Origin: Leucoraja ocellata
Taxonomy: Eukaryota
Length of the DNA stretch: 64,000 nucleotides
Direction: 5' to 3'
Assembly (NCBI GenBank): GCA_036785375.1
Contig: JAWMAR010002203.1
Coordinates: 62,001-126,000, forward strand
A model generated the notes under the pieces. The model was not told the DNA's origin, ran no database searches, and saw nothing but the letters and a program-made list of their open reading frames with translations. Made by a program: the position numbers and the translations under genes. This document shows, one piece after another, positions 10,011 to 60,019 of this stretch. Position 1 is the first letter of the stretch; every line of letters begins with the position of its first letter.

Positions 10011-10565
10011 ACAACCAGGAGTTTGTTTCTTTTTTTGCATATGGGTGTCAGGAAGCAAAATTGCTGTCTGTGAAGTGTGTTCTTGTAGTACTTTAGTTTG
10101 CTGACACAGCTCCGTTTACATCAGAAAATCAAATACACGTCGTAGTACTGATTCTGTTGTTGAAAGTAACTGTGAGCAAATAGAATTACTTAATTTGCAA
10201 GGCCGGGAAATGGTTTCGAAAAGGAGCCTGAGTCACTGGAGCCCTAAGTTCCCAAATGTTAGAAATGCATTCAGCATGATGCAGCCCTGCGAATGAAATA
10301 GTCAAATGTTTCAAAGCTTATTTGAATCTTAAATTGACTTTGATAGTTTGACCTTTTTAAGGCTAATCATATGTTTTCATGTTTTATCACTGCTTCAAGG
10401 GCAAAAAAGGTCTAAGATGTGTTCATTAATGATTAGGGTACATTACAGAGGTGTACCATCCTATTTGGCTTAACTGCAATATGTTCCTTCAATTATATTG
10501 AACTTTATGGTGCAGGTGAGCATGTTAAGGAAATGCAGGGAATGGCTGAGGTCTGAGAATAGAGC

Positions 10566-11016
10566 TGACGTCACTTTGACCTTGGTAAGCACAGCAGGAT
10601 TATGCTCTTTCAGTGTGCAATGCCATAAAGGCTGGCACTTCTAGGGATGGGGAAAACTATCGACTTTTTGCAGGAAGCCGTTGTCTCTTGTAATTTTGGA
10701 TTGCTGCTGTTTCTAGGGAAGGAGCTGAATGTCAGAGTTAAACAGTGTCGGGTTTGAATACTGGTGCTGCAGATACAGGCAGCTGAATTCCGCATTTTAG
10801 AGATAATTCTTTACAGTACGGTTAGCTGATTTCCTCCCTCCTCCCTCTCCCAAAAGGATCCTCCAGTCAAAGGGTTGCTGTTTTTTTAAGAAAACGCAAA
10901 CTAGGCAGGAGATGAAAAGAGGGACAGAGGTTGTTTTGTATGCATTTAGGCCACACGCTCTCCCGTTGCAGGACAAGGGTCTACAATTTCCGTTATTAAT
11001 TGAAACAGTATAAATA
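10566..11016 (+). promoter_or_regulatory. Putative internal promoter for the alternative first exon
   Basis: Perfect CRE TGACGTCA at 10566-10573 and TATAAATA at 11009-11016, in an apparently repeat-free stretch upstream of the MKCF exon. Confidence 0.4.
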
Positions 11017-11102
11017 GATAGAAGGGCTTACTCCTTTCTTGTTTTGGGGTGTGTTGTTAATAAATGAAACTCCAGCAGCATATCGGTGGTATACTGCAGA
11101 AG

Positions 11103-11193
11103 ATGAAATGCTTTCACTGTCATTTCTTCTATTCAATTAAATCATCATTCTCTGGCCTACATGCGCTGATGTCCACTTCACCCTATAACCAAG
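11103..11193 (+). CDS. PPP2R2A: Candidate alternative first coding exon of PPP2R2A (MKCFHCHFFYSIKSSFSGLHALMSTSPYNQ), B-beta2-like N-terminus
   Basis: aagATG start, 30 codons plus G, then donor AAG|GTATGG in phase 1, matching exon 3. Begins MKCF like PPP2R2B isoform B-beta2. TATAAATA at 11009. Confidence 0.62.
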
Positions 11194-11314
11194 GTATGGG
11201 ATGTTCATTTTTTTTGGTAAGATGTGGGTTTTATTTTGACAATGTAACATCTATTGTGCAAGCAAACTGCCAATGAACATGTTTTGTTAGTTAGCTGAAT
11301 GAACTGATTATTGG

Positions 11315-11622
11315 AAGTCTAGGACTAGAGGTCAAAGCCTCGGAATTAAAGGACGTTCTTTTAGGAAGGAGATGAGGAGAAATGTCTTTAGTCAGACGGT
11401 GGTGAATCTATGGAATTGTTTGCCACAGAAGGCTGTGGAGGCCATGTCAGTGGATATTTTAAAGGCAGAGATCAATAGATTCTTGATTAGTGCAGGTGTC
11501 AGAGGTTATTGGGAGAAGGCAGGAGAATGGGGTGAGGAGGGAGAGATAGATCAGCCATGATTGAATGGCAGAGTAGACTTGATGGGCCGAATGGCTTAAT
11601 TCTACTCCTATTCCTTATGACC
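11315..11622 (+). mobile_element. CR1 LINE 3' fragment
   Basis: MRRNVFSQTVVNLWNCLPQKAVEA and the typical 3' UTR gatgggccgaatggc. Confidence 0.85.
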
Positions 11623-13199
11623 TCATTAGTGTGGCTGGTTGTCAGTGGACTGTCCTGTAAAAGAGGCAAACTGCCACTTTGTCGTCCAGGGCTTATGAAA
11701 AGTGAAGAGACGCTTTGTTACAAACACATCACTTAATCAATATTTAGGTGAATGGATGACGTGCATTTTGTTTTCATCGTATTTTCCCCTGGGCTGCACA
11801 GAGATACATTGACTTTGGGAATCCAAGCCTTTTATTTGAATTGGAGAGTGGGGGTAGGGGGTGTGGAAGAGAGGAGGAATATATTTCATAGCTTTCATCT
11901 CAGAATATTTCAAGAAGGTTGAAATAAAAAATCCTGCCCTCTCTTGGGATTTAAGTTATTAATATCTTCAGTGACAACTCGTGTTTAACAAATGATGTCA
12001 ATTGCTGTGTAGGTTTGAATATTGATAACTGGGTGCACTAAAATAGTGAGACCTGCCCAGTATTCAAACCCTAGATTCTCCTCAACATCAATTTCGACGG
12101 TATTTTGAACTATTTAGCCGTAAGATGAATTGGTCCTGGTGGGAGAGATTCCTGCCTATGTCACCATGCGCGCATCACATGCGTCGTGATGCATAAATTA
12201 TGTTGCGTAAATTACGCACAAATGACGGCCAAATGGAACAGGCCCTTTACTCCAAACTCTATTTCCGGACTTGAGACCGATTTTAAATTGGGGGTAAAAC
12301 AGTTTTTGCTCAGATTCAAAGAACAGTTAAAAAAAAATGTTAATGTGCGTGGGTGTGTTCATGGGAAAGGGAAAATGAATAAGACATCGTATTTTTATGT
12401 TTGAGCAAAAAACTTTGAGGGGGGTAGTTTTAACCTGCCTCTGGTTTAGCAGTCACACTGAGCAAATGTCGGTGCCTTCTGTTATCTATCTGGATGCTTA
12501 TTAATTGTCGGTTTATTGGAGTTGCCTGTTGAATGTGACTGATGATAGCAGTTCTCCAAAATGCATATCTCACAGGGGAGTAGGCATGAATAAAGCTTGT
12601 AAATGTTTCTTATTGGATCATCAGTCTTTGCATGATAGTGACGTTTTATTTGGAAAGTGGCTGTCGTGTGGCAGCCATTCATTCTGCTCTGCTAGTAGCC
12701 TGATAAGCTTCTCAAACTAAGTATTGCACTGTAATGAGGTTTTGAACTTGGTGTGAACCTAATTGCCGCTTAAGTACTCAATGGTCAGGGATTACGATTG
12801 TAGGTTTGACAATCAGCTGATTGGACATTCCAACTATTCAACAATGACAAACCCTCTAAAAGTATGATTGTGACCTTTTTCCTTGACTGCAGATTGTTAC
12901 TGTGCTGGAAGATTTGTGGAATACATGTCTGATTGCTGGATTCTAATTAACACAAAGATAATCGAAGCTTGGTTGTAACGTTGAGCTGTGAACAGCTTTG
13001 TGAATGCAAATTTGAAATGTGATATGGCAATTGTGAAAGTGCTTCTGTGTAAATGTAGTGACGTGGCCTGGAGTGCCTCAAGTTAAGCGGCTATAAATAA
13101 CCAGCTGTCGCTGTCAGTCTTCGTTGACATTGCAGCAGATGGGACCTTTTCAACGGGAGAAACAAAAAGTTATTGATTGCACAAACTAGGGTGGATTAA

Positions 13200-17732: not shown

Positions 17733-18085
17733 TGAGGATGTAGTATGCAAAGCAAGTAGGAATGTGATGTCTCCGCAAAAAGATGGAGTTTGAAGTATGA
17801 TTGTAGTTAAATGATTCATCAGAACATTAGAGATGTCAAATTCTGTTTTATAGAAGCCACAATGGGGTGCCTAATGACCCTCATTTTTGCTGTGAATAGT
17901 GAGAGATAAATTCTACACTCTCCCTTGTTTGTCTTTTGTTTAACAAATCGAGCAAACCAAAGTTATTTGTTTTCTATTTCAGTTCCAGCCTTGGGTATTA
18001 GATGAGTGCCCCGTGTGTGTTTGTGTCTTGGCCTTGGAACTGTAATTTGATGGCTAATTGTAGTATTTTGCTGGGAATTCCTATA

Positions 18086-19457
18086 GGGTGATTTCACTAA
18101 AGGTCACTGGAGCGTGTATCCGCACCCACGTGACCAAAATTCTCCGGTGGAGGACACATCCGGGTCCTGGTACATGTTAGTGGATGGGAAAAATCGCATT
18201 TTCCCACCCGTTAAAAACATAGAAAACGGCGAGGTTGAGAGCTGCAATTTACTGTGCCAGTCGGGGTGACTGTGAGGCACAACTACCTAGATTTACAGGG
18301 AAAAAAAAGATAGCAAGTAAGGTAAATTCAAGAGGGAACTGAAGGTGCCTATCCACCGGAAGTCAGGAGCCGATAATTGCCGAGGATATTTAAAGGTCCA
18401 GAATATCGGGAAATATCGCGTTTTCCCGCTGAATTTCATCAAAAGTAAGGCATTATATACTTTTTTATCTTTATTCATTTGTTAGATGAGAATTTTTAAA
18501 AGTGAAAAATCACTCAGTAAAAGTTCAAAATCGGCCATGGTTCTCAGGTCGGTTTTAACATGCAAAATCAAAACGCCTCTGAAGCTGCATTTACCATTTA
18601 AATAATGATAAACTATCAATGCATTTTTAAATAAATTTCACTCAGATGCAAGCTAAGGAATGTGATAATTATCAGCTGTCAGTTGGACAAAATTAGGACA
18701 TGTTATTATTTGCCAAAATATATTTCTCAATGTTTCTTGTTTAAAGCCTGCACATTCACCCAATTAATACATAAGTTGTTTGGGTGAATGTGCAGGCTTT
18801 AAACAAGAAACATTGAGAAATATATTTTGGCAAATAATAACATGTCCTAATTTTGTCCAACTGACAGCTGATAATTATCACATTCCTTAGCTTGCATCTG
18901 AGTGAAATTTATTTAAAAATGCATTGATAGTTTATCATTATTTAAATGGTAAATGCAGCTTCAGAGGCGTTTTGATTTTGCATGTTAAAACCGACCTGAG
19001 AACCATGGCCGATTTTGAACTTTTACTGAGTGATTTTTCACTTTTAAAAATTCTCATCTAACAAATGAATAAAGATAAAAAAGTATATAATGCCTTACTT
19101 TTGATGAAATTCAGCGGGAAAACGCGATATTTCCCGATATTCTGGACCTTTAAATATCCTCGGCAATTATCGGCTCCTGACTTCCGGTGGATAGGCACCT
19201 TCAGTTCCCTCTTGAATTTACCTTACTTGCTATCTTTTTTTTCCCTGTAAATCTAGGTAGCTGTGCCTCACAGTCACCCCGACTGGCACAGTAAATTGCA
19301 GCTCTCAACCTCGCCGTTTTCTATGTTTTTAACGGGTGGGAAAATGCGATTTTTCCCATCCACTAACATGTACCAGGACCCGGATGTGTCCTCCACCAGA
19401 GAATTTTGGTCACGTGGGTGCGGATACACGCTCCAGTGACCTTTAGTGAAATCACCC
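18086..19457. mobile_element. Foldback/MITE-like non-autonomous DNA element: two ~680-bp inverted arms around a 16-bp spacer, flanked by TA
   Basis: 18083-18763 is the reverse complement of 18780-19460 (coordinate sum 37543 at the ends, the centre and the mirrored 61-aa ORFs). Termini TA|GGGTGATTTCAC...GTGAAATCACCC|TA. Confidence 0.85.
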
Positions 19458-21611
19458 TATTGATATAATTCATATTGGCAAATAGACACTCAATTGGTTT
19501 ATGAGGTGGGGGGGGGGGGGGTCAAGAGTCGTCAAAAGTGCTTTATTGTCATGTTCCGAAACAGAACAATAAAATTCTTACTTCAGCAGCACTAGAGATA
19601 TGTGAACAGAGTACGCTGGGGTGAGGGTTAGGGAGTGGGAGAAACTTGGGTGTGCAATGAGTTACCACATCCAAAACTATTTTTAAATAAAATGATTCAA
19701 GACCAGATCATTAAACATGCAGAATGCAGCTGGTTGAGGTTTTAAACTAATTACACGTGGGCTGTGAATATTTACCTGAGATTCTGATGCTGGCTGATTT
19801 GAGTTTGCCTCATTATACTTTGGGTAATAATGTGAGCATGGTGAAGTGACTCTGGTTTTTGAAACGTGTGATCTATGTTGTGGATTACAGATGCTAGTAA
19901 ATTGTGTTTCTCTGCTGGTGTCAATTGGATTTGGCTAGCCCTATTGGTAAAACTGAGAAAGGAGGAAAGGGAACTTGACTACATGGTGCCCCTTGGAAGA
20001 CCTTCATGTGCAAAGTGTTTCCAGGTTAATTGTGCACTTTTGAAATGTATACTTAGTGTTGTAGTATGGCGATGCGTGTCTACTGTGTATACCTGGTCCC
20101 ACAACAAATTAGGTTTATAACTTAAACTGTTTAGTTGATAGTTGAGGAATAAATATAACCCACAGCGAACTTTACATTTCCTGAAATAGTTCACTGAACT
20201 CTTATTTATTCCAAAATGAGAGAAAGCTGACAGAGCCTTGGGTTATCTAGATTACAGAAGTTCCTCGAATGATTGCATGACCTTCTGGCACAGAGTACTA
20301 CCACTGAGCCAAGCTGGAAACGAGCACTCTGAGAGGTTGCAGTTTGCATTGAGTCGACCGCACTACACAAATGTTGTATCGCAAGTGCCAGTTATGGTTT
20401 TAGTGACACCTGGTCTGCCTCTCTGCTCTCTTTCACCCCCTTGCTTAAAGGTGATCCCCCTTTCAGTAAGTGATGCTGAAAATAAACTGTTTTGGCACCT
20501 ATGTGGACTTTATGATTCCACCAACAACAAAAAAATAATGATAGCAGCCGCAATATGTCATTACAGATATATGTCATTGAAGGCCCACCGCTGATTTTCC
20601 AGCATCCTTGATTCCAGAGTCTGGATTATCTGTTTTGCCGGACCAACGAAGGTCACAGCTTCCGAGAGGAGTGGAATGGTACTGGAACGATCGGCCTTGG
20701 CCAGCCAAGGGCCGAGATACTGGCCCGAAAAGATCACCTCAGTAGTCTACTGTGGGAATGGATCTGCCGGCTCCGGCCTGGCTGGAGCTCCAGAGCCATT
20801 CACCTCAATAATTACCCATGGTATACCCATGGTAACAAGTTGTAGACTATCACCAGTTTCTGGCTCAAGAACATTCTTCTGAATTCGTCCAACTGTTTTT
20901 TTTAAATCTTTTATGTTCCCCAGCTTTAGATGCAACCTGAAGGTGACATCTCACCGTCCAGGCATTTCTTGAGTAACATGATTGAGTGCGGAGCAGAATC
21001 CGGACCGACATGTTTTATTCATGAATGCTAGGTTTATTTAAAGACCTTTAACACATCTAATAGTTGGCAATAAATGTCAGGAGTAAAATTTCAAACCAAG
21101 TTTAGGGCGTGTGTGAATGCATTTGTATGCAAACAAGTCCAGAATTATTGGAGCATGCTGCTTCTAAGTATTTGAGTAGAATTATTGGCTATAGTTATGT
21201 AACTCTGCAGATCAGTGTTTCAATACAATGACATGGCTGTCCCAGTAGTACTGGCACCTGCAGGGCAACTGGCTCAATGGGATGGAAAAAGCAGCACTGT
21301 GATGTACGGAGAATTCCAGGCAGTATCTGGGCACCTGTAACTATCTCATGCCCAATGATTTTTTTTTTGTAGTTTGAGATTCGGATATAGAGCTTAAGGC
21401 CAGTGTTTCAAGAGTGTGTACATGCAGAACTCCTTCATCGTATCCTTGTGAGCTTGACAAGTGGTACATGTAGCCTCGTCTGATAAATTGTTCCTTATCT
21501 GGTTACTTGTCTCAAAGCTCACAAGTTCTGTTGTGTACATCAGCTAATTCTCCTGAAGTTCAACGATGAGAGTGAAATGTCCTAATGTTTTATCATTCTT
21601 TATCTTTACAG

Positions 21612-21709
21612 CTGATGTTATTTCCACGGTAGAATTCAACCACTCTGGAGAACTACTGGCAACTGGGGACAAGGGGGGTAGAGTGGTCATATTCCAGCAG
21701 GAGCAGGAG
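21612..21709 (+). CDS. PPP2R2A: PP2A regulatory subunit B55-alpha, coding exon 3 ([33 protein letters not shown])
   Basis: tttacAG acceptor, GAG|GTGAGT donor, 98 bp. Translation matches the B55 N-terminal WD40 region. Canonical exons 1-2 were not found and lie upstream of the window. Confidence 0.96.
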
Positions 21710-23063: not shown

Positions 23064-23229
23064 AACAAAAGCCAGCCTCATTGCAGAGGTGAATATAATG
23101 TTTACAGTACTTTTCAGAGTCACGAGCCAGAATTTGACTACTTGAAAAGTTTAGAAATTGAAGAAAAGATCAATAAAATTAGATGGTTACCCCAGCAAAA
23201 TGCTGCACAGTTCCTGCTCTCTACAAATG
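23064..23229 (+). CDS. PPP2R2A: PPP2R2A exon 4 ([55 protein letters not shown])
   Basis: ttgcAG / G|GTGAGT, 166 bp. Contains the B55 signature [17 protein letters not shown]. Confidence 0.97.
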
Positions 23230-24541: not shown

Positions 24542-24654
24542 ATAAAACAATAAAGTTGTGGAAAATCAGTGAAAGAGATAAACGACCAGAAGGATATAAT
24601 TTGAAGGAGGAGGATGGTCGATATAGGGATCCTGCCACAGTCACTACGCTTAAG
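24542..24654 (+). CDS. PPP2R2A: PPP2R2A exon 5 ([38 protein letters not shown])
   Basis: cttAG / AAG|GTGAGA, 113 bp. [17 protein letters not shown] is alpha-type rather than delta-type. Confidence 0.96.
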
Positions 24655-26182: not shown

Positions 26183-26360
26183 GTGCCGGTATTCAAACCT
26201 ATGGATTTAATGGTTGAAGCAAGCCCTCGAAGAATATTTGCTAATGCACACACATATCATATAAACTCTATTTCAGTCAATAGTGACTATGAAACTTACT
26301 TATCAGCAGATGATCTTAGGATTAACCTGTGGCATTTAGAAATCACAGACAGAAGTTTTA
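26183..26360 (+). CDS. PPP2R2A: PPP2R2A exon 6 ([29 protein letters not shown]...EITDRSF)
   Basis: ctcAG acceptor, 178 bp, ends at a GTATCCTT (U12-type) donor. Confidence 0.96.
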
Positions 26361-27871: not shown

Positions 27872-28036
27872 ATATTGTAGATATCAAGCCTGCTAACATG
27901 GAGGAGCTGACTGAAGTGATTACAGCAGCGGAATTCCACCCCAATCAGTGCAACACATTTGTATACAGCAGTAGCAAGGGAACCATTCGACTGTGTGACA
28001 TGAGAGCAGCTGCCCTATGTGACAAACATGCCAAAT
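27872..28036 (+). CDS. PPP2R2A: PPP2R2A exon 7 ([55 protein letters not shown])
   Basis: ctcAG / T|GTAAGT, 165 bp, translated by hand (absent from the ORF track). Confidence 0.96.
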
Positions 28037-29537: not shown

Positions 29538-29707
29538 TGTTTGAAGAACCTGAAGATCCCAGCAACAGGTCGTTCTTCTCAGAAATAATTTCTTCAATAT
29601 CAGACGTCAAATTCAGTCACAGTGGTCGTTACATGATGACACGAGATTACCTATCAGTGAAAATCTGGGACTTAAATATGGAAAGTAGACCTGTGGAGAC
29701 ATACCAG
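29538..29707 (+). CDS. PPP2R2A: PPP2R2A exon 8 ([57 protein letters not shown])
   Basis: caacAG / CAG|GTAC, 170 bp. Confidence 0.97.
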
Positions 29708-31284: not shown

Positions 31285-31376
31285 GTGCATGAATACCTCC
31301 GAAGCAAACTGTGCTCACTGTATGAAAACGACTGTATTTTTGACAAGTTCGAATGTTGTTGGAATGGATGCGATAG
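31285..31376 (+). CDS. PPP2R2A: PPP2R2A exon 9 ([30 protein letters not shown])
   Basis: ttacAG / AG|GTAAAA, 92 bp. Confidence 0.96.
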
Positions 31377-33345: not shown

Positions 33346-33625
33346 TGTTGTCATGACTGGGTCGTACAACAATTTCTTCAGAATGTTCGATAGAAACACA
33401 AAACGGGACATTACGCTAGAGGCTTCGAGAGAGAACAGCAAACCACGGGCTATCCTGAAACCACGCAGGGTGTGTTCAGGGGGCAAGAGGAAGAAGGACG
33501 AGATTAGTGTTGATAGTCTGGACTTCAACAAGAAGATCCTGCACACAGCCTGGCACCCTAAGGAAAATATCATTGCCGTAGCCACAACCAACAACCTGTA
33601 TATATTCCAGGACAAAGTGAATTAA
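33346..33625 (+). CDS. PPP2R2A: PPP2R2A last coding exon ([21 protein letters not shown]...[25 protein letters not shown])
   Basis: ttcAG acceptor, 280 bp to TAA. C-terminus matches B55-alpha. Confidence 0.97.
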
Positions 33626-51500: not shown

Positions 51501-52151
51501 AAGGAACTTGGGACATGTAGCTTATTTTGTTGGTGCTATTTAGACAAACGTCATTGAGATTTATCGTGAAGAAGCAACATGCTTGTCATCCCTAACACCT
51601 GAGCAAGATCAGAGATTGGATTATGGGAGTACAGATGCTAAATAGGAAGCTGACATTTGGCTACATCTGTAAGGCTCTTGTCATTCCCTCCAGGTTTAAA
51701 TTCAGTGAGCGACTGAAGTGTTTACTGTGCTGTCACAAAGGAATTTGCACATTCCTATTAACTAATCTTGCCCGACAGCTGGAAAAGGAAACTGTATGCA
51801 CAAATGCAAGAGATTTAATTATTAGTAGGAATGTATAGATCAATGTTTATTACTTGTACAACATAACAAAGGCTATGTTCTGTGGGGAGTTGGAAGAGGT
51901 CTTGGGAATGGAAAGATATTACACTCAATATATGTGTTGGAAATGATGAAATTTGCAAAGGATGAGGTGTACAGAAAGATGCCCTTACTCACTGCTAAAT
52001 ATCCCAATGAAAATTGCTGCCTAGTTTTTGCAGATAAAATGCATCTACTGGATAATAACAGAATAAATATAGCATTTAAGCTTCAACAAAGAAGAAAGCA
52101 GACAAAAGAAGTGCAATTTAGGTTTATCCTTGTTTTCTTTAATTGCTTTAG

Positions 52152-52338
52152 GTTCTTGGGTGGAGTTGCACATAAAGAACAATGGGAATGGGAATGACAG
52201 TGGCTCCGGACGAAATGGAGGGTTGGAGCATGTGCCCTCATCGTCCTCCATCCATGATGAAGACATGGAAAAAATACTTCTGGATGCTCAGCATGAATCT
52301 GGTCAGAGTAGTTCGCGGGGAAGCTCCCACTCTGACAG
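52152..52338 (+). CDS. BNIP3L: BNIP3L exon 2 ([62 protein letters not shown])
   Basis: tttAG / AG|GTAAAG, 187 bp. LIR motif WVEL, NIX-type [13 protein letters not shown], and [13 protein letters not shown]. Confidence 0.95.
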
Positions 52339-54681
52339 GTAAAGAATTGAAAATCAATATAACGTTTACAGAAACAGCACTCTTCCATGAGTCAGGAGTT
52401 TGAAATTGTCATATGTAACTAAAACGGAACAATACAATCTTGTAGCAGCATAACAGGTCTGTAAACATAGTACTCAGTGATAGTACAATAAAGAAAACAG
52501 TTCAATAAATTAAAAATAACCCCAATATTAATGCAAAACAAAAGCCAACAAAAATAATACATTTTAGGACTATGTGTTTAACTCAGAATTACGTCCTGTG
52601 TGATGCCATGCTGCTGCAGATTTTATACTTGTAAATCTTTTAATTGAGGCACTATTTGTTCATCTTGTTGTTTTCTTTGGGTTTTGGACAAAAATAACTC
52701 TTGCATGGATTTACTACATTGCCTATTGACCATTTGGAAGATAGCAGTAAATATCTTTGTGGTTCTACGTTCCACACCCTTCTAATTTTATGCCCTTCAG
52801 TTATTTATTTTGGGATGGATTCAACTATACACTTTTCGCTATTGACTCAACAAGGAATGACCTCATTTTCTTTGTGCTCAGAAACTGCTCACTACCACCA
52901 CCACAATATCACACATCTCTACCAACCAAATGCTTTGGGTGGTTCACATCTTTGATACCACCATCTTCTATGGTCGTGTATGTCTCCTGAGTTGGATGGT
53001 AATATAGAAAAAAACATTGCTTCATATATTTTGATTGTAACGAGTTGAAGGTTATAGAGTTCATGGCACAGATATGGGCATCTCAGCCTACCTCATCCAG
53101 GTTGACTGTGATGCAGAGCTGCACTATTCTTATTTGAGTTAGACCTGTGCAGGTTTCCAATGCGAGTACCTGTCCAAATGTCTTTAACACATTGTAATTG
53201 TCCCTGCATCCACTACTTCCTCGGGCAGCATATTCCACATATCTGCTACCATCTGCGGGATAAACCTACCCTCTTAAGTTTCCAGGCTCCTCTAACCTGT
53301 GAAAAAATGTTTTGATTATCCTCATGATTTTATTAAGCTCTATCATGTCACTCCCATCAGCCTCCTTCTTTCAAGTGAGAATAAATCCATTTCATTTATT
53401 TTTATAAATCATGTTCGGTATAAAATTGAGTTGTAAAGGATAATTCTAATGTTTATTAAAACCAAATACTTGTCTTAGAAGTGTACATTATGTTGCCTTT
53501 TAATGAAAAAATCCCGACCAATCCCCTGTAATATGTTGATCATACTGTTTTATTGGTTGAGATTTTTTTATCGCTACTGCACAAAAAATTGCAAACTGGT
53601 GATGATTTTATGGAGTTATTATTCACACTAGTTCAGGAACATCACTGAAATTTGCTATAACTGACCTTTTGGCTGTTATGCGGTTTTGCGTAAAAATTGT
53701 TTGAGGTTTCGTCTTACTCCTTTCACTAAAGAAACTTTCTTTAGTGTGAAATCCATCCTCCGCGGGCCTTTTTGTTATTTTTATGCAAGATTAGCTTGAT
53801 TAAACAAATCCAAGACTTTTTCACTGGTCATGTTGTGTTGGATATGTCACCAATTTGCCTCAATTATGCATGCTCAAAATGTATTTATTCCATTCATGTG
53901 ATGACACAGGTATTACCTTATGCCAAATTATATTTTGTGCAGAGCGGCATGTACATTCATGCTAATCTGAATGCAGCTGGCCTATTACCATCAATATCCC
54001 ACTCAAGTATTCAATAAACATCCAGTTCTGTTGTTGTGCATTGCCGTCTTTTTATAGTTCAAGATCACTTAGCACTTCTCTGAAATCCAAATGTCAACAT
54101 GTGCATTCATAACTCGTTATTGGTTTCTTAGACTTTACCCTATTAGTTTCAACTGTGATGAGAAAATAAACTAATGTTGTTACTCTGGAGTTTTCGAGCA
54201 GCATTATTCATTTTCTTAGTGTATCGCTTATATCATGGGATGGATTTCTTTATCTGTAATACTGATTCTACAAAAATGATCAGCAGACTGAAGATACTAT
54301 GCTTTCAGTTAGAGAAGCTACAGTTTGAAATTGTATAAAGTCTAGGAATTTTCTTTTGTAACTGGTCTAATATGCAATAGCTATGTTTGAGCTATTTAGA
54401 CACATAACCAGCCAGGGAATGGCGGTGATTTAGACCTTGTGCAGGCAGGTATGCCATTTAAATTGGCATTGTATTGGTACAGGCATAGTGGGCTGAAATG
54501 TTTCTTCCTTTGCTGCTCCTATCCTATGGGATACATATCCCTTTTGTTACGTTGGGGATATGCATCAATTTGTTACATTTGGTTTCCCATCTATGGGCAC
54601 ATTTTGGGCATTTTAAACAAACCTTTTTGCATGTCGTCTTTTATTTTCATTTGAGTTAATTGTTTCTGTTCAATTTTCCAG

Positions 54682-54763
54682 TCAATCTCGACCCCAAACA
54701 CCTCAGATGACTCAAGCAGTTTTCGAAGTAGAGCCGCAAGGTAGCAGAGACAACAGTTCTCAG
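54682..54763 (+). CDS. BNIP3L: BNIP3L exon 3 (SQSRPQTPQMTQAVFEVEPQGSRDNSSQ)
   Basis: ttccAG / CAG|GTAATT, 82 bp, phase 2 to 0. Resembles FDVEMHTSRDHSSQ of human NIX. Confidence 0.9.
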
Positions 54764-55705
54764 GTAATTTGATCTGGTCTAGGGTTAACTGCATTGCCAA
54801 CAATGATTTGTGCTAAAATGTCATAAAATATGTCATAAAATGTCCTAGGTTACTTTAAACTATCTTTAGACAAATGTTAGCACCAATCCACATAGCAACA
54901 TTGAGATAGGTGCTCAAATAGTCAGATATGTTTTGAAGAGTGGTTGAAAAGTTTTAGGAAAGAGCACACTGAATAAGAAGGACAAGGAAGCTGAAAGAAA
55001 ACTTACTGGTTGTGGAGCAAATGCATCAGGGATATGGAAGAGGTTATGCCTGTGCAAGAGGTCGGAATTGGAGAGCACAGTTGTAGAATGAGCGGAGGTT
55101 GCAGAGATATTGAGAAACAAAACCACCAAAAGATGCAGGCTTTAAAAGTGGCCTAGAGCCCAGTGAGAGCCATAAAGCATCACAGTTGTGGGTGTGCAGG
55201 ATTTGGTATGCGTTAGATTATATATGGTAATGTTTTAGATGCGGGAGACACAGTGGTCTATTCCCCAATTTATTTCCCCGTAACACATTCTCTCCTCTCA
55301 AATACTCCTGCCACTCATCTATATGGGAGAGTAAGTTCAGTAGCCTCGTCCACACATCTTTGGGATGTAGAAGGAAACTGAACCATTTGGAAGAAACTGA
55401 TCACAGTTCAGCCACAATGGCAAAACGAAGAATGATCTTGTGTACCAATTTATAGAAGAGAATGAACATTGATTCAAACTCTGCAGTTGTTTAATTCTCC
55501 TGCTGATGACACTGTCTCCTCTGAGGGTGCGGTGTCCCTCTGTAGCTGCTTATCATCTAATACCAGAGGCTGATATTTAAATGTTACTGTCAAGTCATGG
55601 AGTCAGAGCGATTGTCATAGAGGGGCAAATGGGTCCTTCAGCTCACTGAGTCTGCCCCAACACTAATCTCATTTTGAAAATTCTCCCCACATCCTCCTCA
55701 ACTGA

Positions 55706-56035
55706 GACAGCACGGTGGCGCAGTGGCACAGTTAGTACCTTATAGTGCTAGAGCCCAGGTTCGGTCCTGACTACGGGTGCTGTCTCTACGGAGTTTGTAC
55801 CAAAGATGGTTTGTACTTTCTCCCCGTGACCGTGTGTGTTTTCTCCAGGAGTTATGGTTTCCACCCACATTTCAAAGACGTACAGGTTTGTAGGTTAATT
55901 GGCTTCAGAATTTTTTTTTTTTTTTTCCCTAGTGTGTAGGATAGTGCTAGTGTACAGGGATCGCTGGTTGGCGCAGGCTCGGTGGGCCAAAGGCCAGTTT
56001 CCACGCTGTATCTCTAAGGTCTAAATTAAACTAAA
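55706..56035 (+). mobile_element. V-core SINE, followed by an older inverted copy (~56075-56235)
   Basis: Head cagcacggtggcgcagtgg, core acggagtttgtac..ttctccccgtgacc, tail ctgtatctctaa. Confidence 0.82.
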
Positions 56036-56539
56036 TTCCTCAGATTCTACCACTCACCTGCACACTCGGGACATTTTAATTAACCTACCAACCCACATGT
56101 GTTTGGTATGTGGAAGAAAACCCAAGCACCCAGGGGAAACCCATATCACCACAGGGAGACAGTGCAAGCTCCACACAAGCAGCACCCAAAGTCAGAATCA
56201 ACCCTGGGTTTGTAGTACTGAGAGGCAACACTACCACTTGTACCAGTTTTATATCTTTTTAAAGGGATTTTAATTGACCTTCAGGATTTTGGTAAAAAGT
56301 GTTGTCACCTTTTACTTTGCCCAAATAAAATAAGGCAATTTGGTTATTTAAAAAAAGCTGCTGAATGGATTGGAAGTCGCAAATAAACACAAATATAAGG
56401 TCTAAATAATTCATTGAATTCTCGCTCTTTCGCTCCATATTTCCACACTGGAAGAGACGGGTAGATGTTGTTACTAGGCATTTCTCAAGTTTAGTCAAGC
56501 CTATTTTCTTATCAGTATTTTATTAAAGTATAGAGGCAC

Positions 56540-56661
56540 AAGAAACTGCAGATGCTGGAATTTAACATAGAACACAAAATGCTGGAATAACTCGGCGGGT
56601 CAGTCATCATCTCAAGAGGTTATGGATAGGCAATGTTTTGGGTCGGGACCCTTCTTCAGAC
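56540..56661 (-). repeat. Penelope-like short repeat
   Basis: aactgcagatgctgg...gggtcgggacccttcttcagac. Confidence 0.6.
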
Positions 56662-56836
56662 ATTAAAATATAATGACTTGAATTTTTTCAGAGAAATGGT
56701 ATGCAAGTCAACCTGCATAAGACACAACAAGTTCAGAATAATCACCAATGCTTGCACATATCAGGAGATCTTGAACTTGCAAACAGTAATTTAGCATTTT
56801 ATGGACTTTCTGTTAATTTCTGGGTTTTCTGTTTAG

Positions 56837-56943
56837 TCTGAAGATGACAGTTTGGAACGAGAACAAGAGGAGGAAATTATGATGAAGAGAAGTGCTGAAT
56901 GGATCTCCGACTGGTCAAGTCGACCTGAAAACATTCCTCCAAA
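56837..56943 (+). CDS. BNIP3L: BNIP3L exon 4 (SEDDSLEREQEEEIMMKRSAEWISDWSSRPENIPP)
   Basis: gtttAG / AA|GTGAGT, 107 bp. Conserved WSSRPENIPPK. Confidence 0.95.
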
Positions 56944-58413
56944 GTGAGTTGAGAATATTAGTTGAGAAGAAAATGCCCTGTACAGTTGTATCTTGCGTTG
57001 GTGCCATGGAGGTATACATTTCACATTTATAACTAAACGTCTGCTAGTCATGTATAATATCTGTAGTGTATTGAAAAATTTGATGATCATTGGAAGATAA
57101 ACCGTTGATTGTGATTGTAATTTCACCCCTTAGTCCAGGGAGCTGCCCCTGTTCACACTGGAAGGGATTTATATTTTTGTGGCAATGCCTGCCCCAGTTC
57201 ATACATGGTCAGAATGCTTTCTGATCTGCTCTCTCATCTCCTTCCCTGCATTAGGCACCAAAATAAATTGCAGAATCTCTATTAAACTGCTGTGAAAATG
57301 AGACAATCAATCTTAGTATATGTGTATGTTAAGTATGTAATGTCCAAATGCCACTCTATATCAAAATACTAGCAGAAGTCTGAATCCCACTTCACGCTGT
57401 TTGTGTTGATGTCCGATAGATTTTAATTTTAGAAGAAAACCTGTAGGGATCCAACCATAGCTGAACCAGCTGCTGAATGTGCATCTAATCCTACAAATCC
57501 TCAGATGCTGTATTTCCTATTTTAGCAGCACCATTATTGAAATGTGCTTAACAAAACCTAAGTGCTTCCAGAATGACTTTAATCTGCCTAAATATTCTGT
57601 GCGTTGATTGCATTTTGAGAAAAGAACAGTACATTGCAAAAACTCATACAAGTTTGGATGTTATCATGCTCTACAATTAGAAACGCATTTCTCCCTAATT
57701 GACAACGTCTTACAAATCCATTTTTGTTTGTAAAACCTAAAAGCGAGGATATTATCAGTGCACAAATATGCTACTTAATTAATTCCAGCTCCCTTAATGG
57801 CATGGTGAAACACAAAGGTGCATCTGTAAATCCCAGCAATGCAATAGGGTCTACTCATTCCACAACCAAAATCTCGTAGCCAGCGATTCAATGTATGCAT
57901 CAAAGATTGTTGCTAGTATTTTGTAATGAAGTAACATTTGAATGTTACATACTTAACATACCCATACAATGGAGAAAAATGTTGACCTGTTCATCTGAAA
58001 TAAAAGTGTGACTTTCAATACATAGCGGCCTGTATTAAACATCCTGGAGAAAAAAAAGTATACTCTGTGCACTCACCACCTGCTTCAAGTAATAAAGAAA
58101 ACCAAGTTGCAGTATTACAAAGCTTTACACACCAGGAGGAAGATCAATCTAATATTTTTTCAGCCATTTTTTTGCACTAGAATTTCCTCTATCATCCCAA
58201 GGGTTGCTTTTTATTTGTTTTTCCCATTTGCTACAATTGCTGCAAAATGTACTGAAATTTCAGAGTAGCTAACTACCTGAAATAAGTCCTCGTGTTCTAT
58301 AAGAGAAATCTGGTTATCATAAAATTGGTTGTATTGGTTTGAGAGATCTGAGATCATGCGTAATGCAAATTATTCTTGGATGAAATTCTTAATATTTCCC
58401 CCCTCTCCTCCAG

Positions 58414-58563
58414 GGAATTTCATTTCAAACATCCTAAGCGTTCGGTCACACTCAGCATGAGAAAGACTGCGGCAATGAAGAAAGGAGGAGTATTTTCTGC
58501 TGAATTTCTGAAGATCCTCTTTCCCTCCCTCCTTCTGTCACATATTCTGGCTCTGGGTCTAGG
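58414..58563 (+). CDS. BNIP3L: BNIP3L exon 5 ([49 protein letters not shown])
   Basis: ctccAG / GG|GTAAGT, 150 bp. Start of the transmembrane helix. Confidence 0.96.
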
Positions 58564-60019
58564 GTAAGTGTTTAACAGTGGTATTAATTAAAAAAAAAAC
58601 CTTTATTGAAGAAAAAGAATCAGCACCTTATTGAAGAGCAAGTTGATCTGTAATACTAACTATTTCTTCTTCAAATGATCCCAGGTTGCAACACATTGAT
58701 AAACTTGGTGATTTTAGAATTTGTATCAGATAATACTTCAACTCAACTAAAGACTCTTACATTTGTAGTGAAGCCTCCTTGAAAAATAGTTGATAAATAA
58801 CACAATAAATTACTAAAATATAATTACATAAATTGCTTCTTGCTTTGATTTACTGAATAATAAAACCCTGCAGCCCGCCAGTTGCATTTTTTCAGTGTTG
58901 CTGTTATCTGCTGCTTCATACTACCATTCTGCCCCATTTAAAAACTAATTTCACTATTTTCCACAACACTTGTTTATTGGTGCTGCTGTTTGTGTGCATG
59001 TTCTTTTCAGTCTGAATTAAACTTAGAGAACATTTCTGCTTTTATAGCTGTTTTCAGTATGAAGTGCTGCTCCAATCTTTGTGTTTCCACCTTTGTGTTT
59101 CCAGAGATTTCCACCTACGAGGTGGGGGGAATTATTTTCCTCGCATTCCTTCAAATGATTATACCAATTACCTCAAATCTATGCGTCCTGATTATTTTCC
59201 TTTGCAAAAGGATAGAAAGATCATTCTATGACCCTCGCAATGTGCTTACAACCTTTGATTATATCTCTTCTCGGCCTTCGTTGCTCAAAAAAAAGCAACC
59301 ACAGTTTATCTAATAGAAAAGCTTACATTCTTAGCAACATCCTTGCAAACATTCTCTGCACATTCTCCAGTGCAATTGCATCATTCCTGTAATGAGATTT
59401 ATGCTGAGCATTCAAACTGGTCTTAACCATCTCTCTTTGGACAGTCTGCCTGGAGTTGTGATTGATTGCAGTTACAGACTTATAACTCTTCTCATCCCAT
59501 TGAAATATTACCGAGTTTCAGTGGGGCACCTTCACATCTTTGGCACATATTTTATGTCCATATCTCTGTCCATATTTACTTTAGCTGTTTGGAATTTTTA
59601 TTTCTTAAAGAATAAAACATTTGTATACCGGAGAATCTTCAGGCTTCTGACTTTGGCAAGTCCTTCTTTAAAATGACAGATGTACATATTTCAATTGTAT
59701 GAAAAGCAGAGATTCAGGTGCGAGATTAAGTGTATGGAGGAAATCTGAATTTATTGCTGAATAAGTATTGTTCAAGAGCTTGGGTACTAAATTGTTAAAT
59801 GCCAAAGTTAATGGCTGCATGAACTAAAGAAAGAACAGCTCTGTCCATGTTAAGATTGGCCTAAGTCTTAATTACAAACAACGCTTGTGTGGAGATAAAG
59901 TTATGCTTCCATTTATAATTTAACATAGCAAGTTAAATTTTAAAATGGCATTTTCTTTGTGCGAGTGAGAATTTGGTAGGGAGAAACGTAGTTTCCTAAC
60001 CTGAACCCTTCTGTTTTAG

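Follow-up and report, generated by a model that had tools for sequence, protein, structure and literature searches.

An alternative MKCF exon in ray PPP2R2A, with a twin in PPP2R2D and probable kinship to the Bbeta2 exon of PPP2R2B, predicts a candidate mitochondrial B55-alpha isoform

The window, i.e., the entire 64,000-nucleotide stretch of DNA analyzed here, corresponds to C2203:62001-126000 of a 3.44-Gb assembly, the source genome of which is referred to as 'ray' throughout. It contains exons 3 to 10 of a gene which is, by its sequence, PPP2R2A; in a tree of the common protein core (20 rows, rooted at the midpoint without an invertebrate outgroup) this gene clusters with named alpha proteins (100/99, in a clade of nine rows), where it branches below those of bony vertebrates. 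A BNIP3-family gene with PF06553 matches is located downstream on the same strand as PPP2R2A (C2203:114151-120567, plus strand; window 52151-58567) and is BNIP3L by synteny, and the human PPP2R2A gene is presumably likewise followed by a BNIP3-family gene on the same strand.

Canonical exons 1 and 2 of PPP2R2A were found at C2203:44067 and C2203:44544, i.e., outside the window at ~18 kb and ~17.5 kb upstream, and the additional ATG exon described here, designated the MKCF exon after its first four residues, is therefore located within intron 2, as the first-pass annotation had placed it. In this exon the sequence AAG-ATG opens 30 codons plus a single G, directly followed by a donor (GTATGG), and exon 3 begins directly after the acceptor TTTACAG (Table 1). 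When the MKCF exon is joined to exons 3-10, the borders of which were set by standard exon sizes and each checked for AG/GT, the exon lengths of 91+98+166+113+178+165+170+92+280 amount to 1353 nt with AG/GT at every junction, a single terminal stop and a product of 450 aa. The assembled frame thus bears out the annotated ATG, 91-nt length, phase-1 donor and 450-aa product (91+1262 nt), and the second haplotype (C33) carries an intact and identical MKCF exon. The peptide had furthermore been described as lacking Asp and Glu, which is correct for the ray and peculiar to it, as all compared relatives possess D or E at position 29, and as rich in basic residues, which applies to two Lys and three His with zero Arg. 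Downstream of the MKCF exon and ahead of exon 3, intron 2 also harbors a 1378-bp self-reverse-complement (window 18083-19460, 99%), for which the C33 haplotype displays another layout, namely a 336-bp inverted pair; the difference represents either a structural polymorphism or an assembly artefact.

Table 1. Coordinates (window positions) of the MKCF exon, its candidate upstream elements and the shared PPP2R2A exons
Feature	Position	Strand	Remark
Perfect CRE palindrome TGACGTCA, candidate promoter element	10566..10573		-537; only copy within the 64-kb window
TATA-like box TATAAAT, candidate	11009..11016	+	-94 from the MKCF ATG
In-frame upstream ATG, weak context, 13 extra codons (MKLQQHIGGILQK)	11064..11102	+	Resembles the 12-residue basic extension of sauropsid models
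12-nt leader, identical in the PPP2R2D exon	11091..11102	+	Terminal 4 nt (GAAG) shared with the Bbeta2 exon; CAG-AAG = possible splice acceptor
MKCF coding exon, 30 codons + 1 nt, phase 1	11103..11193	+	
Splice donor GTATGGG	11194..11200	+	Read-through = Q-G-M-G, as in two genomic ORFs with the orthologous exon
PPP2R2A exon 3 (ADVISTVEF...), common acceptor	21612..21709	+	
PPP2R2A exon 4	23064..23229	+	
PPP2R2A exon 5	24542..24654	+	
PPP2R2A exon 6	26183..26360	+	
PPP2R2A exon 7	27872..28036	+	
PPP2R2A exon 8	29538..29707	+	
PPP2R2A exon 9	31285..31376	+	
PPP2R2A exon 10, coding part up to stop	33346..33625	+	

When the genome was searched with the 30-residue peptide, four places were returned: the alpha exon in each of the two haplotypes, and a 57% match occurring twice on contig C240. 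The C240 exon is situated 13.6 kb above exon 3 of PPP2R2D, a gene which groups with delta (97/96) in the same core tree. It aligns with the alpha exon free of gaps, with 17 of 30 residues identical, and exhibits the same 91-nt length, phase-1 donor and 12-nt leader; together with the downstream exons it constitutes an open frame for a 450-aa delta protein. At the nucleotide level, 59 of 90 positions are identical between the two exons as against 25 of 90 in each flank, the similarity being confined to window positions 11091-11199 with unalignable flanks on either side. The mismatches are distributed 11/5/15 over the three codon positions, which is a coding-type pattern, and stop codons close both other frames. 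Canonical delta exons 1-2 are absent from the 18.8 kb above the delta MKCF exon, and no public PPP2R2D protein with this exon was seen in a sampling without any large delta cluster.

Two other readings of the exon were ruled out: that of a poison exon, since the substitution pattern tracks the MKCF frame, and that of a repeat-derived sequence, since the genome holds the alpha and delta copies only, and matches to MKCF within a common LINE motif diverge past residue 4. The PPP2R2D/BNIP3 region (C240:3090604-3315450) is present twice, head to head, with 98.5% identity and an N gap, and probably represents two haplotypes joined in one scaffold. The BNIP3-family neighbor of the C240 gene is arranged tail to tail with it; the mitophagy receptor BNIP3L adjoins the gene for a possible mitochondrial phosphatase subunit, as does BNIP3 in the case of PPP2R2D.

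The exon is also represented in bird and snake PPP2R2A. In a non-random set of 369 proteins, an MKCF N-terminus was present in 10 of the 185 alpha-type proteins with a length of at least 240 aa, and nine of these ten reach the exon-3 peptide after exactly 30 residues, the remaining model reading into the intron. The named sources are four birds (Callipepla, Colinus, Bambusicola and Columba) and the cobra Naja, and no MKCF alpha protein was from a named mammal or teleost among the members listed (15 per cluster, and 15 of 999 in the largest). Three RefSeq alpha models (XP_009915624.2, XP_029891098.1 and XP_032845871.1) include the exon, the first of which is 450 aa long and groups with bird alpha in the core tree. 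The bird and snake peptides are identical to that of ray alpha at 13-15 of 30 residues and to that of ray delta at 12-16, and the local scores against bird alpha (68 for ray alpha, 91 for ray delta) indicate that ray alpha is the more diverged of the two.

A profile built from six alpha/delta peptides produced five matches among 291 candidates, all of which are alpha-type, and six matches among 50% representatives, where P0225 and P0230 represent the exon, P0229 represents a repeat protein and P0226-P0228 show long matches in multiple stretches. With only the two ray peptides as queries, a protein search gave 14 candidates, none of which scored, and a search of the ESM Atlas for look-alikes of P0123 (residues 1-45) returned 0.82 at best and no family. 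Two genomic ORFs show the same donor context as the ray exon, one being P0230, in which 18 of 30 residues are as in the bird peptide; since the start codon and both Cys are no longer present in P0230, the MKCF exon has evidently decayed or changed use in some lineage.

Because the same exon occurs in ray alpha, sauropsid alpha and ray delta, its origin can be placed, on comparative grounds, no later than the common ancestor of jawed vertebrates in the case of alpha, and earlier than the separation of alpha and delta, a retention which spans more than 400 million years of divergence. The first-pass annotation had regarded the exon as a survivor in the ray lineage alone; this view had to be abandoned given its presence in bird and squamate PPP2R2A and in ray PPP2R2D, and the alpha isoform, being already contained in automated gene models, is therefore not lineage-specific. 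The MKCF exon is almost certainly a selected coding exon.

In four of twelve raw-read RNA runs (5-25% of each), covering window positions 10300-11390 with exon 3 and any control exon outside this stretch, no spliced MKCF exon was observed, and no joint was visible because the stretch excluded exon 3. Three of the four runs have zero reads over the MKCF exon, and the fourth displays sense coverage 1-3 deep from 10670 to 11298 that continues through the donor in a pre-mRNA-like manner; the four runs speak weakly against broad expression. No RNA record carrying the exon was listed, a blank without evidential weight. An interspersed repeat at window 11316-11623, 120 nt below the donor, is abundant in the RNA runs. 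The RNA result is also weakly compatible with a tail that plays no part in targeting and is encoded merely as a consequence of tissue-specific promoter use, or with an exon that is silent in the ray, as are the greater distance of ray alpha than of ray delta from bird alpha and the losses seen in P0230. Such a reading is nevertheless considered very unlikely, as cartilaginous fish and sauropsids, and likewise the paralogues, have half of the residues and the exact length in common, and as both haplotypes hold the intact, identical exon.

Both of the upstream elements that had been annotated, i.e., a TATA box ~90 nt upstream and a CRE, are indeed present (Table 1), the background of TATAWAW in the window being 0.44 per kb. 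Scans of 1500 nt above the delta exon and 949 nt above the beta exon revealed neither TATA nor CRE, and the assignment of the two elements as a candidate promoter of the MKCF exon is suggestive only. Absent from the earlier description is a second in-frame ATG at 11064, and the true N-terminus may vary, since some bird models are spliced from upstream and basic extensions occur: several sauropsid models carry a basic 12-residue extension ahead of MKCF, and three RefSeq models of one species (P0207, P0211 and P0214) enter the exon from upstream, 16 codons above MKCF, with canonical exon 2 preceding the MKCF exon in two of them. If the exon were internal, or if translation started at the upstream ATG, the N-terminus would comprise 42-43 residues or follow canonical exon 2, and targeting would rest on the basic extension, which differs among lineages. 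Such an arrangement is suggested by the three spliced models, by the in-frame upstream ATG found both in the window and in P0129/P0207 (net +4 to +6), and by the CAG-AAG ahead of the ATG, which could serve as an acceptor. It is decidedly unlikely, however, as the upstream ATG is out of frame in the delta copy and is preceded in the ray by a stop codon, with T at -3, while exon 2 joined at CAG-AAG meets a stop 13 codons on; furthermore, alpha-delta similarity begins 12 nt above the MKCF ATG, at which the majority of the models begin.

Amniote PPP2R2A possesses another alternative start (MFPKFSLRSMFH / MFLKFSLRSVFY) before the WCF exon (P0273, P0122 and P0275). These N-termini are basic, without acidic residues, and conserved in mammals and birds, and they might constitute a second targeting signal.

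Homology of the MKCF exon with the Bbeta2 exon of PPP2R2B had been proposed on the basis of a quoted Bbeta2 tail, which agrees with the rat protein (P0246) and with PMC2810296, where the Bbeta2 tail sequence is given and the peptide is oddly labelled in the methods. In the ray PPP2R2B gene on C124, the Bbeta2 exon follows the WCF exon and precedes exon 3 by 233 kb, and the Bbeta1 exon was seen in the other haplotype, where it precedes exon 3 by 135 kb. The order of WCF exon, MKCF exon and exon 3 is identical in alpha (44544, 73103 and 83612 on C2203) and in beta (3563.6k, 3492.5k and 3259.0k on the minus strand of C124). All three ray exons (alpha, delta and Bbeta2) end AAG-GT in phase 1 and share the 16-mer GAAGATGAAATGCTTT around the ATG, a match expected 0.0003 times per 305 kb, and the MKCF codons and four upstream bases (GAAG) are identical between alpha/delta and Bbeta2. 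In the alignment of alpha/delta with Bbeta2, K2, F4, an aromatic or aliphatic residue at 8 and 12, a basic residue at 13 and the Ser cluster coincide. Degenerate copies of the ray PPP2R2B WCF exon are arrayed in tandem ahead of it (C124:3563567-3563927), with a donor in the last copy only.

An end-anchored comparison, with ATG and donor fixed and MKCF excluded, was designed post hoc after alignment inspection; in this test the score of ray Bbeta2 was attained by 0 of 628 background pseudo-exons and 104 of 20000 shuffles, the corresponding figures being 2 and 113 for rat and 3 and 274 for teleost Bbeta2, and none of five other first-exon peptides of the B55 family exceeded the mean of the background. 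Unanchored HMMs of either alpha/delta or beta placed the other group outside the top 12 of 2562 ATG peptides, a genome search with the Bbeta2 peptide returned neither the alpha nor the delta exon, and the alpha/delta profile returned no Bbeta2 protein in protein searches. The occurrence of MKCF in a common LINE likewise weighs against kinship. These unlinked profile searches and the 4-codon difference in length would fit a separate origin of the alpha/delta and Bbeta2 exons, with MKCF having arisen by convergence or chance; yet the identical synonymous codons and four upstream bases, the common phase and gene order and the 3'-end similarity render this extremely improbable. The alpha/delta exon and the Bbeta2 exon very probably share descent, as had been proposed, a conclusion that is well supported by the statistics and to which place, phase, the 16 nt and the anchored similarity contribute, although unanchored profiles miss it. 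In agreement with the earlier proposal, the origin of the exon would precede the duplications separating alpha, delta and beta, since it is present in three paralogues (PPP2R2A, PPP2R2D and PPP2R2B).

For PPP2R2C, 890 candidates from 190 kb of C228 and 486 candidates from 110 kb of C436 include no MKCF exon, and the best of them score 16.6 and 12.0, respectively, compared to 62-70 for the reference peptides on their own set. A loss from PPP2R2C is tentative, because both stretches are gapped and gamma exon 3 is outside them. The ray gamma WCF exon matches two chondrichthyan RefSeq proteins (P0080 and P0177), which marks the source animal as a cartilaginous fish, probably a ray or skate. The MGED first exon of PPP2R2C is frameshifted at C228:2256784, near an N gap, possibly owing to an assembly error.

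The canonical tail carries a net charge of -4, that of ray alpha MKCF +2, and those of ray delta and bird alpha are within +1 to +2; Arg is absent from the ray alpha, ray delta and bird alpha tails. The best hydrophobic moment is 0.40 for ray alpha and 0.44-0.50 for its relatives, compared to 0.77 for Bbeta2. The alpha tail falls short of an Arg-containing amphipathic presequence in that it has no Arg and carries Cys at position 6, K2 and K13 being kept. The lack of conservation of Bbeta2 Arg6, which had been noted previously, is general, as C3 and C6 are invariant in six of six aligned alpha/delta peptides. The Ser cluster near the exon end reads STS in ray alpha and delta and SVS in birds, and is absent in Naja. 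Work by Dagda in 2005 is said to have shown that Bbeta2 targeting requires basic and hydrophobic residues, Arg6 included, and that the mechanism consists of an import signal combined with a propeller resistant to unfolding, while Ser residues near the Bbeta2 exon end are reportedly under phospho-control (Merrill, 2013).

In the mechanism envisaged, the intron-2 ATG exon would swap the acidic canonical N-terminus (exons 1-2) for a 30-residue, Ser/Thr-rich and weakly basic tail, and its phase-1 splice to exon 3 would give rise to a 450-aa B55-alpha with the propeller intact. One exon of an ancestral vertebrate B55 gene would have yielded the copies in PPP2R2A, PPP2R2D and PPP2R2B (Bbeta2). By analogy with Bbeta2, the tail could act as a weak presequence engaging outer-membrane import receptors, the folded propeller would block import so that PP2A would be parked on mitochondria, and the Ser/Thr cluster at 24-26 may function as a phospho-switch. 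A mitochondrial B55-alpha isoform from a shared ancestral exon is the best explanation as a whole, with a probability of approximately 0.5. Transcription in the ray, the tissue concerned, mitochondrial targeting and any Drp1 role are predicted components with similarly balanced odds, targeting in particular being an even bet because of the missing Arg, the Cys at 6 and the low hydrophobic moment.

N-terminal Cys pairs are often acylated, and the main competing reading is that Cys3 and Cys6, beside Lys2 and aromatic residues, are S-acylated, tethering PP2A-B55alpha/delta to the plasma membrane, the Golgi or another membrane, or that the tail binds a partner. The invariance of both Cys in all six alpha/delta peptides, the missing Arg and low amphipathicity, and a tail that is four residues longer than that of Bbeta2 and devoid of its Pro residues all point in this direction. 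A proven mitochondrial signal, however, has the same first four residues and the same general pattern, and acylation or partner binding is judged unlikely, though a serious contender. If the tail does address another membrane, one ancestral exon would have been re-addressed following genome duplication.

The prevailing view holds that Bbeta2 is the sole B55 with a mitochondrial address and that alpha and delta are cytoplasmic (PMC4275284, PMC12675759 and PMC11780858). The last of these attributes to alternative N-termini the cytosolic location of Bbeta1 and the location of Bbeta2 at the outer mitochondrial membrane, where it activates Drp1, and its family alignment contains canonical N-termini only; canonical B55-alpha and -delta are reported as cytoplasmic or diffuse in PMC4275284 and PMC12675759. 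No published description of a Bbeta2-like PPP2R2A or PPP2R2D isoform was found in a search that did not extend to subscription papers, among them older surveys on the splice forms of PR55/B, and PMC11977278 adds nothing on such isoforms. The earlier designation of the isoform as undescribed stands with respect to the papers searched but not to automated gene models, which already contain the alpha form; the delta twin and the Bbeta2 link were seen recorded nowhere.

It is conceivable, if somewhat doubtful, that mitochondrial PP2A-B55 is an ancestral vertebrate module and not a neuronal speciality of PPP2R2B, with the broadly expressed alpha and delta genes keeping Bbeta2-like exons in cartilaginous fish and alpha doing so also in birds and squamates. 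If this is true, unrecognized mitochondrial PP2A holoenzymes could control Drp1 outside neurons, and model lineages may have lost the alpha/delta exons. A homologous alpha/delta exon alters the history of the B55 family, supplies natural variants with which an unusual signal for outer-membrane targeting could be dissected, and leads to testable isoform predictions for chicken, lizard and skate or catshark.

Among the known systems close to the ray product are the automated bird and squamate PPP2R2A models (the three RefSeq entries above together with OXB56933.1, KAG8141335.1 and KAF7242113.1), which have the same exon, length and junction, the RefSeq form being 450 aa long like the ray product, and which are predicted isoforms without a name or assigned function; the ray core is identical to a bird protein at 397 of 420 residues. 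Canonical B55-alpha/delta (MAGAGGG...WCFSQVKG) shares exons 3-10 and the propeller with the MKCF form but differs in its acidic tail. Bbeta2 (rat AAP33142.1 / NP_071545.2, i.e., P0246) resembles the alpha form in having an alternative ATG exon placed after the WCF exon and before exon 3, its phase-1 join to ADIISTVEF, the same MKCF codons, a basic residue at 13 and a Ser cluster near the end. Its tail comprises 26 residues as opposed to 30 in alpha/delta, which lack Pro-Pro and Arg and have Cys in place of Arg at position 6, and the alpha exon is the faster evolving, with 15 of 30 residues identical between ray and bird compared to 23 of 26 between ray and rat for Bbeta2.
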